Under the pieces are notes generated by a model. That model worked only from the letters and a program-made list of their open reading frames with translations. It was not told where the DNA came from and did no database searches. A stretch of DNA of 64,000 nt. Origin: a virus. The translations under genes and the position numbers were made by a program. The stretch is from the UHGV virus genome UHGV-1493261; one strand, given 5' to 3'. Every line of letters starts with the position of its first letter. Within the stretch, counting starts at the first letter, position 1. Below are positions 19,059-35,960 of the stretch, piece by piece.

Positions 19059-19255
19059 GACAATACTCCTTTCAGAGCTAAAACGGAAAGCACACCAATA
19101 ATCAACACAATCGGCCTGATATAATAACCCGTTTTAGTTTGCTTCAAGATACATGGAGAGGAGAAGCGCAGATATGGATCCCCTTTCCGGTAGCCTGTGA
19201 TTGTAACCTTCTGCACTTTATAAGGCACTTTTTGACCAGAAAAATAAATTTTCAT
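19055..19255 (-). CDS. Hypothetical small protein with C-terminal TM helix
   Basis: 66 aa; ends [18 protein letters not shown]. Confidence 0.45.
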
Positions 19256-19812
19256 ATTTCAATCCCCAGATTGGTGTATAACAACTCAGACAGGGTTACA
19301 GGGCGCTTGAATTGTTCCCAACTACAGTTCAGGTATTCACGTTCTTCACGCATTTCACTGTGAAGATGACCATGGATATTATACGCCCAGCGGTCTAATT
19401 GATAAGGAACGTGAGTGGTCAACACACGACCAACCGGAGTATCACGCTCATACATCGCACCAAAGGAGCTAATCCATCCCTCTTGATACAGCTGCATCAA
19501 CATCTTGAAGCTGTCATGGTTGCCTTGCGCCACCCTGATGATAAAGTTCGGACGCCAGTCATCGGGAACCGGGCGGCGCTTGAACTCATCAATATTCCTC
19601 TTGGCACCCTCGCGCATCAGGCGAATGAACCCCTCAGCCCCGATGAAGCAGATGTCCCCAGCCAGTTCAAGGACGTCTCGGGACTTCAGCCCCTGAAAGA
19701 TACTGTCGATAACTGCAGCATCATGTGCCTCTTGGGTATCGAACCCACGGGGATTGAAGATCTTCTTGTGCCCAAGGTGGGTGTCGCCCAGATACTTTAC
19801 AATTCCTGCCAT
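19252..19812 (-). CDS. Calcineurin-like metallophosphoesterase
   Basis: Motifs GDTHLG, GNHD, GHLH. Start set at the internal ATG (MAGIVKY) that overlaps the upstream stop by 1 nt. Confidence 0.7.
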
Positions 19813-21396: not shown

Positions 21397-21996
21397 TCAC
21401 CCCTCCTCGTCGATGATTTCTTGCTCATCTTCGACAATCATGATACCTTCTGTGTCTAGATGAGAAAGTTCCATCAGATCATCATCGAATCCGTCTCCTT
21501 CCCTGATATAGAAGACTGGGACGACACGGCGGCGGGTCTCTTCATACACGCTTTCAGAGATTCGATTGATATGGCGCACTACACTGTAGAGGTTCAGGCC
21601 ACCAATACCACAGCCGATAGCAGGCAGGCCGACATAGACAGTTTCGTCTTTAGTTGCTTCCACAATTTCATGCACCTGCTCAAACAGGGTCTGAACAGAA
21701 CTGATGACTGACGGCATTCGAGCGTTCGGGCCTGGATAAAACTGAGTGTAGAGGTTCGCACCCCAGACACCAGTGCTATGGTCAAATGCATAGGACATGC
21801 CACCCAGGCGTTGCTCTGGACCACGAGGGTCGTTCGCATCGACTTCGCGCAGCGCTGGGAAGTTGTTGCCGATGTGCAGGGCAATACCCGCGCCCATGGT
21901 AGACCAACAGTTGGCACCGTGGGCAAAGATGTCGATCAGATTGAAGCTACAGGCGGCTTTCAGTAAATCGCCGCCATTGATTACATAGGCTGTCAT
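21397..21996 (-). CDS. Macro-domain (ADP-ribose-binding/processing) protein
   Basis: N-terminal INGGDLLKAACSFNLIDIFAHGANCWSTMGAGIA parallels the macro-domain GD-x7-DAIVNAAN-x5-GGG signature. Start set at the ATG forming an ATGA overlap with the upstream stop. Confidence 0.5.
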   Translation of the reverse strand: MTAYVINGGDLLKAACSFNLIDIFAHGANCWSTMGAGIALHIGNNFPALREVDANDPRGPEQRLGGMSYAFDHSTGVWGANLYTQFYPGPNARMPSVISSVQTLFEQVHEIVEATKDETVYVGLPAIGCGIGGLNLYSVVRHINRISESVYEETRRRVVPVFYIREGDGFDDDLMELSHLDTEGIMIVEDEQEIIDEEG

Positions 21997-22235
21997 GCGT
22001 ACTGTCTCCATTCAATAATGCTGTTGTCAACACATGACACCTGGATGATGCCTGTGCGGTGGTGATAATCAGTCATCTGCATGATAAAGTTGTTCCCATT
22101 GCGGATAATGGTGTTGACAACGATACCCTTGGCAGCAAGGCGTATTACAATGGCAGTGCAAAGGCGGTCCATGTAACCGGACACAGAACCTGGTTCGAAG
22201 CATCGCTCGAACAGATTTTCAAATTCTGGGCTCAT
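21993..22235 (-). CDS. Hypothetical protein
   Basis: 80-aa ORF translationally coupled to the macro-domain gene. Confidence 0.5.
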   Translation of the reverse strand: MSPEFENLFERCFEPGSVSGYMDRLCTAIVIRLAAKGIVVNTIIRNGNNFIMQMTDYHHRTGIIQVSCVDNSIIEWRQYA

Positions 22236-22253
22236 TTGATGTTACCAAACAAG

Positions 22254-22275
22254 GGGTCGAGGCGGTAATAATACC
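22254..22275 (+). terminator. Hairpin + T-run (plus-strand orientation)
   Basis: GGCGGTA-ATAA-TACCGCC followed by TTTTTCTTC on the plus strand, inside a minus-strand gene block. Confidence 0.35.
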
Positions 22276-22285
22276 GCCTTTTTCT

Positions 22286-22696
22286 TCAATAGAGGTCTTC
22301 TGAAAAGAGTTCGCGGAAAGGGGTTGTCTTCAGGCGCACCTGATTGATCTGCCCAGCTTCACGGGCTACGATGCATGCCTCTTCACGAGTGAGGAAGTTG
22401 CCCTGGTTGTCGATGAATCCCTGTTCGCGGGTATGGGTGGATTTAATGACGCCTGCTTCTTTCAGGATCTTGAGCTGGCTGTTCATGAATCGGCTGTGGT
22501 GACGGTCGGCAACGACGATTACATCACCATATTTGTTGGCAGCAGCGACCACACGGCGCTCCCAGGCACCTTCGACAGGAAGTTCACGAGTGTACAATGG
22601 AATCATCGTATCACCGATGTCATCCCCCTTCACCTGTGAGAACAACTTGCCTTCAGTGCCCGTTGGGAGTTCACGAAAATATCCCAGTAATTTCAT
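22286..22696 (-). CDS. Hypothetical protein
   Basis: 136-aa ORF. Confidence 0.5.
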   Translation of the reverse strand: MKLLGYFRELPTGTEGKLFSQVKGDDIGDTMIPLYTRELPVEGAWERRVVAAANKYGDVIVVADRHHSRFMNSQLKILKEAGVIKSTHTREQGFIDNQGNFLTREEACIVAREAGQINQVRLKTTPFRELFSEDLY

Positions 22697-22698
22697 AA

Positions 22699-22977
22699 TC
22701 TATTCAATCCAAATTTCAGGTTCAGAGATGTCAACCATATCCACTGTCTGGTTCTTCAGATCATGGAAACAGTCGCCGAGGAATTGTATTTTGCCGTCGG
22801 TCAGGAACAGATGGCAAATGATGCTGGATCAGTTGCATTCACCAGCAGGCTCGGTGTGAACGTAGGCTCAATAACATTGTTGTTCCACGACCACATCGGA
22901 CCTTGGGTTTCGCCCTTAATGCGATATAGATGAAGTATACCACACCCAGGACAATGAAAATACAAGGAATCATCCAT
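22699..22977 (-). pseudogene. Candidate frameshifted small Cys-containing gene (Zn-ribbon-like)
   Basis: 58-codon ORF (MDDSLYFHCPGCGILHLY...AICS, stop at 22801) is followed in the -1 frame by a 35-codon open stretch without a start (…LTDGKIQFLGDCFHDLKNQTVDMVDISEPEIWIE) ending 2 nt before the next gene. Confidence 0.3.
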
Positions 22978-23012
22978 AGACAGAAGTTTAGGGCTCAGAA
23001 GCTATGTTATGA

Positions 23013-23300
23013 TCAACCATCTACAGTGGCTTCAGGATCGTAGGGGCGCAGTTCACCAACCAGTTTCGGAAAGAGTGCAAGCCCGAACAGGTTGAAAGAA
23101 CGCATAGTGCCTACCATTGCAACATCTTCCCCTTCCTCGATATCTTTCAGGGCGCACATTGGATAATATTCATCGACCTCTGGGTCTTCCGTCTCACCAT
23201 AGAGACCAAACGCCACCTCCTCTTTGATAAAGCGAGGAACCAGGAAATCAAATAGGATAATGATGAATACTATAGGTGCTGCAGAACGGAAATAGAACAT
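23013..23300 (-). CDS. Hypothetical membrane protein
   Basis: 95 aa with N-terminal hydrophobic segment; GGAGGG RBS preceded by a GGAGGGG-CGAA-CCCCTCC hairpin. Confidence 0.5.
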   Translation of the reverse strand: MFYFRSAAPIVFIIILFDFLVPRFIKEEVAFGLYGETEDPEVDEYYPMCALKDIEEGEDVAMVGTMRSFNLFGLALFPKLVGELRPYDPEATVDG

Positions 23301-23341
23301 AGCACAACCCTCCAGGTGAGGAGGGGCGAACCCCTCCGATG

Positions 23342-24673
23342 CTATAGGCCAAGAGCCTTTTCAAGGTCATTAAGGTCTTCAGTGTAAAGATCGATGTCCT
23401 CTTTCTTACTTAATTCCTTGTGCTGTGCTTCAAGGTTCTCAATCTGCTTCAGTAGGCGCTCACGGGCGTCCAGAGTAATAGACGACAGAGGCATCTTGAA
23501 CAACTCGTCAAGATCACCACCAAAGTCCGGGTAGTCCTGCATGAACAGAGACTTCAGCACGTCAATCTTTTGGCGGAGATCAACACGCGTCGCCCATTCA
23601 ATGAACACCGCCCGGTCACCCAGCTTGCGGATCCTGTCTGCCATGTCCTTCAACAGATACTGGCGACGGTCTTCGTACCGTGACAGGCGATAATTGAAGA
23701 ACGGCAGCAACATGTCCCGCCAACCAGAATAACGATGAATAACACCGTCTTCATCCCAGGCCGTCCAAACAGGCTTGGTGGCTGAATACAGCTTGAACAT
23801 CTGCTCAACCTGCTCGTCACTCAGCTTAGAGAGTTCGCCGCGCTTAAACACAACCGTGATATCCCAGCCATCTTCGGTCGTGTCGTTGGCGTACTCGGTC
23901 AGGATACCTGCCTTATACAGAGGCAACAACACCTTGGTCTCATAAGTCTTGGCGAACCAACCCACTGGGACTTCGGTGATATGCAGGGTCGTGGCATTGA
24001 CCCGACGGAAGATACCGCGACTGTATGCTCTTCCTTCCTCAGTATAGCCTGTCTCCCCTTTGTAGCCGTTCCAGTACGGTTTTAAGTCTTTCGGGTCTTC
24101 GCCACGGAGAAGCGCTCTCAGGGCACTGAGCACGGACTTAACGCAATGACACGGGGTGTCGGTAGAATATCCGGTGCCGATACCATTGATCCCATTCACC
24201 AGGAACATGGGTAGGATGGGCAGAAAGAACTTCGGCTCCAGTCTTTCTTCACCAAGGTAGTTGTATTCCAAGATACCCTCATCCTCCTTACGGAAGATCT
24301 TGCGGATAACATCAGATACAGCGACGGATATGTATCGGGCAGATGAAGCATCACGCCCCATGATAGAACCAAACTGGCCATCGCGGTCAAAGTACGGGAT
24401 GTTGTTCGTGCCTGGGAACCCCTGAGCCATGTTCACGATAGTGCCGCTCATGTTCTCACCACCAGACTTGTAGTTGGTGCGAGCGGCGGCGAACATACCA
24501 AGGCGGTCAACGATCTCCTCCTTGTTGTACTCAAGAGCAGCAAAGAGGATCTTGCGCTGGCTTGGCTTGAGGCTGTCAATCAGCTGAGGGATTTGACGGA
24601 TGCTGTTGACCACAGAAAACTGCTTATGGTCAGTGTTGACAAAGTCCGTTACAGTAATGCTCTTGGCAACCAT
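23342..24673 (-). CDS. DNA topoisomerase II medium subunit (T4 gp52-like)
   Basis: Collinear with T4 gp52: LKPSQRKILFAAL vs FKPVQRFVIARAL; active-site Tyr context ARYISVAVS vs SRYIFARVS; KFFLPILPMFLVNGINGIGTGYST vs AFYLPIIPTVLLNGVSGIATGYAT. Start set at ATG 24673 (ORF-track TTG at 24736 not used). Confidence 0.85.
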   Translation of the reverse strand: MVAKSITVTDFVNTDHKQFSVVNSIRQIPQLIDSLKPSQRKILFAALEYNKEEIVDRLGMFAAARTNYKSGGENMSGTIVNMAQGFPGTNNIPYFDRDGQFGSIMGRDASSARYISVAVSDVIRKIFRKEDEGILEYNYLGEERLEPKFFLPILPMFLVNGINGIGTGYSTDTPCHCVKSVLSALRALLRGEDPKDLKPYWNGYKGETGYTEEGRAYSRGIFRRVNATTLHITEVPVGWFAKTYETKVLLPLYKAGILTEYANDTTEDGWDITVVFKRGELSKLSDEQVEQMFKLYSATKPVWTAWDEDGVIHRYSGWRDMLLPFFNYRLSRYEDRRQYLLKDMADRIRKLGDRAVFIEWATRVDLRQKIDVLKSLFMQDYPDFGGDLDELFKMPLSSITLDARERLLKQIENLEAQHKELSKKEDIDLYTEDLNDLEKALGL

Positions 24674-32749: not shown

Positions 32750-35506
32750 TTATGCCCTGATAATGGAATTTGAAATAACGTCCAAGTAATCCGAAGAATT
32801 TTCAATCGGGTTCAGGGCGCTTGGTTTGTAATTCTCTTTCAAGAACCGGACAACACGATGACGTTCTACGGTCATGCGGTTCGCCTTTTTCGCGTTCCGT
32901 GTTGGCGTCTTCAGTAAATCAAACGGTACGAATCCGTGAATCCTCAGAACTTCCGATGCGCGACTGAAGATTTGCAACATACGTTGTTCCGCGCGGAACA
33001 CCCTTTCATCCCGCTCATTGGTATACAGATTCAGATTCAGAGTGCTGATCGTATCCTGGAAATGTTTGAAGCGGCGAACCTCATGAAGAGAAACATTACG
33101 CTTCGACATCGCCTGATAATGGCGGATAGTTTGTTCGTCCAAGATATCGTCAACATAATCCAGCATTTGGTTATACCGATTAACCAGCTGATTATAACGC
33201 CCGTCTTCCCCTTCACCGAACGCCTGTTTTACCAGATGACACCCGTATTTCAGGCGATTAGAACCAAGATGAAGTCTCTGATGAGATTTCAGCAACTGTA
33301 TCGCGTTGTGGCGTTCCAGCATCGGCCTGGCATTCTCCAACATGATCTTCAGGATTTCATCGATCGGGATGAAGACCTCTGGGAACTTCTTCATCATTGG
33401 CACGGATTTACGGCGAGCCAAGAATATTCTGTCGTGAATGTTGAGCATGTCGCTGATATACACTGGCTTGCCTTCATCGTCGACACTGACTGCGTGCTCA
33501 TACAGAGATTTGCGAATACCCCGCGCCGCAGCTGTGGTCAACGTTCTGTCCATCACCTGATGGATACACTCATAGCCAGACACCTCAATATAGACGATGC
33601 GCTCGCCCTTGTTGATGATATCTGAGATCTGGTCGCCCGTCAGTTCTTCATACTGTTTTATGTCGAAGTTTCTGGACGTGAACGGAAACAGACCAGGGTC
33701 TTTGGTGACCGGAGGCGTGACATACGTCAGTTCGTTCATGAACTTAACTTCAGCAGGCTCCAGCACCGCACTCAGCCAATCGACGAACTTGTCGGCGAAG
33801 CACAGATAATCAACCGTCGTTTCTTCTTTACCAATCCAAGTTTCAAAGAAATCATAGAGAGCCTGAGAATTCTTGAACGCAGGGTTGTCCTTAGATTGGT
33901 TGCGCTTGGTGACATAGGATGTGTTCGGCTTGGCCACGATGACTATCGTCCCTGTATCTTTCAGCTGCTTGATCTTCAGGTTACGAGCACGAACACTATC
34001 TTCGATCACCACAGTAACATGCTGGCCGCGATCAATCCACTTCTGGATTTCTGAAATGGTCAGGGTACTGGACTCACCCCAGTCATAGAAGATCTCCATA
34101 GAGAACGGCGATGACAGCTCATTGAACGGCGCGGTATGGTCATAATCGCGATCAATCTCAACAGGCAGCGGGTAACGGTAATATGAATCGTGGAAGCGCT
34201 TGTCAGCCGGGTATTCCTTTTCAACCATCTTGCGGAACCCACTGCCGAACATTTCACTCAGTTTTACCTTCTCCATATACAGGGCAAGAGGACCGCGCTT
34301 ACACGCCAGCTCCAGGTCACGCATCTTTTCTGTCAAGATTGCATTGGCGGTGCCCTTAAACTCCTCAGAGAGCGTCTCACGCGTGAATTCGTCATACGAC
34401 AGGTCTTCACGCGACGGTGGTACGTTCAGCGAGCCAAGTTCAAAGAATGTATAAGACGACGGGAACTTACTCATGATAGAGGAAGTGTCTGGGTCGAGCT
34501 GATTCAGGTCAATCGGGTACGACACGCCACCCATTACAGCATAATGGATGTTCCCCTGGCCTTTCGGCTGGATGTACGTGTTGTTGACCTTGAAATCATA
34601 ACTGATATCTTCCCAGCTGAAGCGGTATGAAGCGTTCTCAACAATTGGACGTTGTTCAGGGCGCATAACACGACCAAGGCGAACCAGTTCATCGGAGAAT
34701 GCAGAGAAACGAGCGTTCTTCACCGGGATCTTCACCGTCATGCCGTTGAACTCATCGGTGTCTTCCGGCTTAGGATCACGGGTTTCAAGATCTTTGGTGA
34801 TCAGATCAACAGTCGGGATGCGCTTGGCATTCAGGTACATCAGGAAGCGATGGAGTTTACCGTCCATGCGGCTTTCCACAGTGAACGAATCCGATACCGC
34901 AAATGGTGATTTGGAGCCAAGACCGAATGCCCCAATCTGATCATCATCTTCTTCCTTCGTACTGTGGAAGAGGGTGGTATACAATCCAGGCGTACGAATG
35001 ATCTCGCCGTCTTCACGACGGAACACCAAAGACCCATTGTAGAACCCTGGAATGCCGATGACTCCGGCCGAATCGGGGATCTCATCTTCCTTGACCACCA
35101 TGTTTCCTTCCAGCAGCACCTCATCTTCCTGTGCTGGGATAGGCTCGCCAATGATCTTCTCAAGTGGCAGACCGATGCCGTAATCACGTATTTCCAGCCA
35201 TGGTTCAAAGTCATCAGGTAGATGCACAACAACCTGCTTACCCTTCGGTGCAAGGTATTTGCTATGGCGGGCAGGAGGCGGAGTGAGAGGCGCGTAGTGG
35301 GACGCCATCACACGGTGCATACGATCACGCATGCCATGGGAGTCGATGGCGTTACAGACGGTTTCGCGCAGGGCTGCAGCCTCTTTGTAACGATACAATG
35401 ATGAGAACAGAGTCTCAAACATCTTATCGTTCATCTTCACGTTGAACGCCTGCCCCTGAATGGAAGACGACGAGCGGATAAAGTGCTCGGACTTGCGCAT
35501 TTTCAT
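32750..35506 (-). CDS. rIIA: RIIA protein
   Basis: 918 aa. Matches T4 rIIA: [28 protein letters not shown] vs [49 protein letters not shown] vs [21 protein letters not shown]. Confidence 0.88.
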   Translation of the reverse strand: [918 protein letters not shown]

Positions 35507-35612: not shown

Positions 35613-35960
35613 TCAATCTTCAGTGGCAAATTGCGCCTGGAAGTTGAATGTCGGTCGGGTGGCACCAGGCTCAAGGGTTTCCTCAAGATAGCCCACGACC
35701 GTGCGGGTGACTGACACAGTCTCTTTGCGCGGTTTGACTGGAGTGGCCAGTGCGATGATAGATGCCTTCTCTTCTTCAGTGCGGGTATAATCCACGTTGA
35801 AATGATAACGGCTACCGAACGCTGCCACTTCCACTTTGGTGATCTGTAGATCTTTCAGTTCAGTGCTGTTCAGGGTTCCCACGTTCAACTGTGAGCGCAG
35901 GTGCTCAACAATATTGGAGTACACATACTGTGGGGTGATCAGCTGTTCAATAGAACTCAT
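35613..35960 (-). CDS. Hypothetical protein
   Basis: 115-aa ORF. Confidence 0.5.
   Translation of the reverse strand: MSSIEQLITPQYVYSNIVEHLRSQLNVGTLNSTELKDLQITKVEVAAFGSRYHFNVDYTRTEEEKASIIALATPVKPRKETVSVTRTVVGYLEETLEPGATRPTFNFQAQFATED

Follow-up and report, generated by a model that had tools for sequence, protein, structure and literature searches.

An apparently empty interval in a 64-kb stretch of viral DNA (UHGV virus genome UHGV-1493261, hereafter the window) raises the question of whether two successive minus-strand reading frames found there belong to one gene and, if so, what separates them. The preliminary description, made from the sequence alone, had proposed a single gene of about 93 amino acids split by a -1 frameshift, and had left a programmed shift, a pseudogene and a sequencing indel as possible causes. 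The genes in this part of the window lie on the minus strand, and all coordinates below refer to that strand unless stated otherwise. The features of the locus and the lesions found in related phages are collected in Table 1.

Table 1. Features of the locus in the window and lesions of the gene in AV101-like phages
Feature	Position	Strand	Genomes	Basis or remark
Whole probable pseudogene, DUF6527/BubE-family remnant	22700..23010	-		DNA alignments with 20 related phages, PF20137 match, six-frame profile matches
ATA in place of the ATG start	23010-23008	-		Alignment with intact relatives
In-frame TAG in place of CAG (Gln3)	23004-23002	-		Alignment with intact relatives
58-codon ORF with TGA	22977..22801	-		MDDSLYFHCPGCG...AICS*; begins at an internal Met (Met12 of the ancestral protein)
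C-terminal half, -1 frame	22828..22700	-		42 sense codons (22828-22703) and TAG (22702-22700)
TTT run, site of 1-nt deletion	22818-22816	-		Alignments; indel at 22816 relative to AV101
delT(209)	T run		window, LHE287, CECAV_050, PC3, YX22	
delT(259)	inside Cys81 codon		AV101	
delA(236)			ZQ1	
+T(126)			RPN242, L022	
+CC			CECAV_050	Additional to delT
Internal Met12 > Thr			ZQ1, PC3	ATG -> ACG
His83 > Arg			PC3	
Cys81 > Arg			YX22	

The first frame (22977..22801), whose translation is MDDSLYFHCPGCGILHLYRIKGETQGPMWSWNNNVIEPTFTPSLLVNATDPASFAICS*, was found as described, with the CPGCG motif at residues 9-13 (CPGC codons 22953-22942) and its end at 22801; it also includes a conserved Ser codon (22851-22849), which is Ser54 in the numbering of the 103-aa protein discussed below. 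The -1 frame translates over 22828-22703 as SSIICHLFLTDGKIQFLGDCFHDLKNQTVDMVDISEPEIWIE. It is open as claimed, with 33 of its 42 sense codons lying past the 0-frame stop. This frame contains Cys-His (22816-22811, the His codon being 22813-22811) and Asp-Cys-Phe-His (22774-22763), and it has no start of its own, since no ATG, GTG or TTG precedes a GTG located 13 codons ahead of the stop. Its TAG ends at 22700, not 22699, leaving 3 nt (22699-22697) and not 2 nt before the ATG of the next gene (22696). The probability that 42 codons stay open by chance is (61/64)^42, or about 0.13, so openness alone is weak evidence, and it is homology that gives the -1 frame its significance.

Both frames match the same protein family. 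The 58-aa part alone scores 33.9 bits against Pfam DUF6527 (PF20137), which now carries the name BubE, the fused halves score 44.7 bits and the intact orthologue P0001 scores 53.3 bits, all above the Pfam gathering score of 23.6; a match to PHROG 3362 was also obtained (E 4.9e-41). A six-frame hmmsearch of the 64 kb, performed with a profile built from 43 homologues, aligned 23001-22804 to profile positions 9-64 (E 5.8e-20) and 22828-22703 to positions 64-101 (E 5.3e-20), the two matches lying in different frames and abutting at profile position 64, and revealed no further copy of the gene in the window. The repaired window protein is 89% identical to P0001 (103 aa), the most similar protein found, the sequence of which is identical to that of the Shigella phage Gloob orthologue. 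Judged by these sequence matches, the 22977-22801 ORF and the 22828-22700 frame are two halves of one DUF6527/BubE-family gene. The abutting matches, together with single intact ORFs in sister phages, bear out the proposal of one gene split by a -1 shift.

Plus-strand ORFs at 22533-22859, 22763-22933 and 22930-23043 were also considered as genes. They are without a PHROG match and antisense to homologous coding sequence, and are therefore regarded as artefacts, as had been suspected for the plus-strand ORF of the preliminary description. A minus-strand frame-2 ORF (22839-22973) likewise gave no PHROG match.

At the nucleotide level the locus shares 97-98% identity with Escherichia phage AV101 and phages close to it (Ackermannviridae, Aglimvirinae) and 90-94% with the Agtrevirus phages Ag3, SKML-39, MK-13 and P46FS4. 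The alignment with orthologues that had been suggested earlier was performed, and it showed neither two independent genes nor an unconserved downstream frame: an uninterrupted single ORF occurs in ten sister phages of the Ackermannviridae, of 103 aa in Ag3, SKML-39, MK-13, Gloob, 4HA11, P46FS4 and Kuttervirus pertopsoe and of 104 aa in SNUABM-02, CAU_YEP3 and RC-2014, and the downstream frame is conserved. The ancestral start lies at 23010, 11 codons upstream of the internal ATG of the window, and in intact relatives the ATG at this point is preceded by a GAGGG Shine-Dalgarno sequence at a distance of 7 nt. The replacement of ATG by ATA or GTA, which the preliminary description had not noticed, plus the change of CAG to TAG at codon 3, was found in all 11 genomes of the AV101-like set (the window, LHE287, CECAV_050, AV101, ZQ1, PC3, A221, fGh-Ecl02, RPN242, YX22 and the IMG/VR contig L022), in each of which the frame-restored translation reads IT*LLSPKLLSM...

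The lesion that separates the two frames was located by aligning a 330-nt segment with 20 related phages. The window reads GCATCA-TTTGCC, with a single-base gap in the T run (sequence context CAUCAUUUGCC); AV101, ZQ1, A221, fGh-Ecl02 and RPN242 have TTTT here, and in intact phages at a greater distance the corresponding letters are CGTT or CGCT (Arg65). The deletion falls between codons 64 and 66, and once the T is put back the sequence (...DPASFCHLFLTDGK...) runs colinear with that of the orthologues. The codons of the predicted catalytic dyad, Ser54 and His67, are both present in the window, as are all four Cys codons of the predicted zinc ligands (CPGC, Cys66 and Cys81). The deletion separates CPGC and Ser54 from Cys66, His67, Cys81 and His83, which fall in a different frame, and therefore, short of a shift, no single polypeptide of the window holds both dyad residues or all four Cys.

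A one-base loss in a homopolymer is the commonest kind of sequencing error, and the phage could in truth carry TTTT and a gene that runs unbroken over 92 aa from the internal Met, like two clade members, A221 and fGh-Ecl02. However, the T run is just 3-4 nt long, and four other phages, sequenced and deposited independently (LHE287, CECAV_050, PC3 and YX22), carry the TTT allele too. Over 24 kb of comparison between the window and AV101 there are two uncompensated coding indels, both in this gene, one belonging to the window and the other to AV101. All other indels over these 24 kb are intergenic, or coding and compensated within a few bases; the window sequence is therefore not error-prone. 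Moreover, with TTTT restored the ancestral start would still be gone and TAG would still stand at codon 3. A sequencing or assembly error is thus a very unlikely source of the deletion.

Among the indels relative to AV101, those at 19240-19246, 19354-19359, 33486-33489 and 35768-35789 of the window form small clusters in coding sequence that cancel within 3-20 nt, and represent either short frame-shifted patches in otherwise conserved genes or divergent stretches whose alignment is ambiguous.

Regarding the distribution of the TTT allele, its carriers do not cluster by flanking or local distances, and the allele has therefore recurred or been moved by recombination. An exact-pattern scan of IMG/VR and JGI metagenomes for this allele returned nothing, while that for the TTTT allele had a single match, IMG/VR contig L022, in which the gene is frameshifted by another lesion. 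No recorded protein is identical to the 58-aa product.

The same site could be read through by the ribosome. A -1 frameshift, or transcriptional slippage, at UUU would yield a 92-aa full-length protein at some efficiency, with the open downstream frame extending as far as the next gene; a slip after UUU (Phe), with U+GC re-read as Cys, would exactly restore the protein of the four-T allele (...ASF-CHLF...). However, the 28-nt overlap 22828-22801 (UCCAGCAUCAUUUGCCAUCUGUUCCUGA) contains no X XXY YYZ slippery heptamer, and a run of three Ts is too short for transcriptional slippage. The RNA fold of 22825-22700 (126 nt) is not significant (z = -1.15, 26 of 200 shuffles being as good), the only local stem contains the slip site itself instead of starting 5-9 nt downstream, and Rfam gave no match. 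The shift is also unconserved, the closest relatives having TTTT or other lesions and the sister phages a plain ORF with CGTT, and the ancestral start of the gene is missing as well. On the grounds of heptamer, downstream structure, Rfam match and conservation, programmed recoding was rejected, and a tolerated shift of this kind is extremely improbable.

The lesions in related phages show that the damage is not confined to the window. Frameshifts at five different sites interrupt the gene in nine of the 11 AV101-like genomes (Table 1), and only A221 and fGh-Ecl02 are free of indels, with a 92-codon frame uninterrupted from the internal Met. Protein-database matches from assembled phage genomes include more broken alleles (P0017, P0018, P0020-P0030). 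The pN/pS ratio (Nei-Gojobori), based on small substitution counts, is 0.70 in the AV101-like clade versus 0.32 in the intact phages; in the 5' two-thirds of the gene it reaches 0.92 versus 0.39, again from small counts, while in the 3' third, where the DNA is unusually conserved and the counts are likewise small, it is still low (0.26). Within the clade the pseudogene segment has diverged by 1.3-6.7%, as against 0.4-3.6% for the adjacent Arn.3-like gene; small as these numbers are, they agree in direction with the lesions. The marks by which a pseudogene is recognised are all found here: orthologues that are intact elsewhere, several disabling lesions of independent origin, and weakened constraint within the lineage. 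The gene is probably dead across the whole AV101-like clade; since the internal Met is conserved family-wide and the frames of A221 and fGh-Ecl02 are open, a shortened protein could persist in some clade members.

Outside the AV101-like clade, the same DUF6527 gene is frameshifted in Enterobacter phage EspM4VN (L017 601-921, delA in ATTAA-GG), and the C-terminus of protein P0082 of Dickeya phage LIMEstone1 is out of frame after PSLLV. Owing to these independent frameshifts, the gene seems to be repeatedly dispensable.

A shortened product has to be weighed for the window as well, where the 58-aa fragment might be a functional small zinc-ribbon-like protein, a neofunctionalised truncation to which the downstream frame would be irrelevant. 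Its ORF has an ATG, CPGC, His27 and Ser54 are kept, and an equivalent 58-aa CDS is annotated in LHE287. Against this, no Shine-Dalgarno-like sequence occurs 5-13 nt upstream of the ATG at 22977, this ATG is ACG in ZQ1 and PC3, and other clade members carry frameshifts inside this part of the gene (+T in RPN242 and L022, +CC in CECAV_050). It is to this N-terminal part that the pN/pS of 0.92 applies. The fragment has two of the four Cys ligands, so the fold modelled with a pLDDT of 91 for the full protein cannot form. Taken together, a functional fragment is highly improbable. Having the Ser and two Cys and lacking Cys66, His67 and DCxH, the fragment would therefore not be an active enzyme.

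The locus is thus very probably a decaying, non-programmed pseudogene of a stand-alone phage DUF6527/BubE-like gene. Of the causes proposed at the outset, decay is the one favoured by these data, a programmed shift and a sequencing indel being disfavoured. The ancestral gene would have encoded an all-beta protein of 103-104 aa with a Ser54/His67 pair and a Cys cluster for zinc binding (CPGC, Cys66, Cys81). Its start would have been lost, by an ATG to ATA change, in the common ancestor of AV101-like phages including the window, where codon 3 would also have turned into TAG; under relaxed selection a mutation of Arg65 to Phe may then have formed the TTTT run, from which the window would subsequently have lost one T. 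In this order of events, the coding capacity of the window would be limited to the 58-aa fragment read from a weak internal ATG, the pseudogene as such would probably not be expressed, and the downstream -1 frame would still be open solely owing to the recency of decay. The locus may serve as a small case of accessory-gene decay in a phage lineage.

For annotation, this means that 22700-23010 is most probably a single DUF6527/BubE-like pseudogene, and neither empty sequence, a 58-aa CDS nor a plus-strand ORF. In GenBank records of relatives (L001, L002, L005-L012, L014, L018) the locus is annotated inconsistently, with fragments of 46, 58, 63 or 65 aa or with no CDS. Intact copies are labelled 'hypothetical protein' or 'putative anaerobic dehydrogenase', the latter name having been propagated without Pfam support, and for fGh-Ecl02 the annotation covers just 63 aa of the open 92-codon frame, from an internal Met onwards.

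The genes neighbouring the locus encode the gp52 topoisomerase subunit, a small membrane protein, an Arn.3-like protein, a DUF7234 protein and Tk.4, and the pseudogene sits between the Arn.3-like gene and the small membrane-protein gene adjoining that of the gp52 subunit. Across the 1.2-kb neighbourhood, DNA conservation is highest in the segment 22680-22799, which covers the 3' third of the pseudogene and extends over its junction with the Arn.3-like gene: among 11 sister phages its mean pairwise identity is 0.95-0.96 versus 0.52-0.92 elsewhere, and synonymous divergence (pS) is 0.05 in the 3' part versus 0.21 in the 5' part of the gene. This suggests either recent gene conversion or a further constraint acting on the nucleotide sequence, and the conserved 120 nt might serve the Arn.3-like gene downstream in a second role, at the DNA or RNA level. 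Searches for promoter, terminator, Rfam and fold signals in 22680-22799 were negative, and a promoter and terminator scan of 22200-23400 gave counts at chance level.

Further observations concern the neighbouring genes. In RC-2014 (L019 385-564) a 180-nt ORF is annotated where the window has the 411-nt Arn.3-like gene (22286-22696), similarity to the window starting only at about 22533; the Arn.3-like gene thus appears to be truncated or replaced in Limestonevirus. Split or shortened annotations of the membrane protein in 4HA11 (L012 915-1201) and of the Arn.3-like gene in A221 (L007 187-534) hint that these records contain additional lesions or assembly errors. An 80-aa ORF of the window (21993-22235) has a full-length Pfam DUF7234 match (E 7.7e-41) and overlaps the start of the 204-aa Tk.4-like ORF (21397-22011) by 19 nt.

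The possible function of the ancestral gene may be approached through its family. According to a preprint, DUF6527 proteins of bacterial Bub (ubiquitination-like) operons constitute a new serine peptidase family with a Ser-His dyad (Ser92/His102 in Citrobacter BubE) and a zinc finger, the members of which cleave Ubl fusions and strip Ubl-target conjugates; its authors found no structural homologue (10.1101/2024.11.21.623953). In an alignment of 43 homologues, Cys20, Pro21, Gly22, Cys23, His27, Trp40, Pro49, Ser54, Cys66, His67, Gly73, Asp80 and His83 are invariant, and Cys81 is conserved in at least 90%. An hhalign comparison with Citrobacter BubE, the sequence of which was taken from the supplement of the same paper (10.1101/2024.11.21.623953), gave a probability of 88% and an E value of 3e-6 and paired Ser54 with Ser92 and His67 with His102; no significant alignment was obtained with E. 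coli BubE. The AlphaFold2 model of the intact orthologue P0001 is compact and all-beta (pLDDT 91); Foldseek returned no PDB neighbour for it (best E 0.19), a profile search of PDB sequences gave nothing significant, and there were no matches in the PADLOC and NCBIfam libraries. By analogy with BubE, the ancestral gene may have encoded a Ser-His peptidase acting on ubiquitin-like conjugates.

No E1, E2 or Ubl genes are found near the locus in the window, nor do they neighbour three distant homologues on phage-like contigs. The locus stands alone without these genes and is therefore assigned to the Pfam family but to no Bub system. Stand-alone phage BubE-like proteins (Ag3 orf00020 and relatives) are widespread in large phage contigs. 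It is conceivable, though rather doubtful, that they are counter-defence deconjugases that strip the ubiquitin-like tags placed on phage or host proteins by bacterial Bub/Bil-type immunity. If this were true, the losses of the gene, repeated and independent in AV101-like phages and sporadic in EspM4VN and LIMEstone1, would mark hosts without that defence. A family whose members in bacterial Bub operons were recently identified as Ubl-deconjugating Ser-His peptidases has a large stand-alone branch in phages, one that can be dispensed with in some host ranges, and the intact phage orthologues are a possible lead for anti-defence studies.

Programmed -1 frameshift genes are known in tailed phages, an example being the tail assembly chaperone G/GT of lambda. 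The window locus resembles genes of this type in having two successive frames on the same strand, the second in -1 and without a start; unlike them, it has no slippery heptamer, conserved stimulatory structure or conserved two-frame layout, and its orthologues are single ORFs. With BubE the phage gene shares a Pfam match above the gathering score, an N-terminal CxxC-type Cys cluster and aligned Pro-Ser and (C/S)-His positions, and both BubE and the P0001 model are without a structural neighbour in the PDB. The phage branch differs in having an extra conserved C-terminal FLGDCxHxLxxQTV motif, in missing the hydrophobic extension of BubE, and in its Cys arrangement, which is CPGC with Cys66 and Cys81 as compared to CxCxC with Cys99 in Citrobacter BubE. 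The positional orthologues of the pseudogene are Ag3 orf00020, SKML-39 gp155 and P46FS4 gp160, which share 90-92% DNA identity with it over 330 nt and, as in the window, are flanked by the Arn.3-like gene and by the membrane protein gene next to gp52. These three genes are intact, encoding 103 aa from their own ATG with a GAGGG ribosome-binding site, whereas the window copy has lost its start, acquired TAG at codon 3 and undergone the 1-nt deletion.
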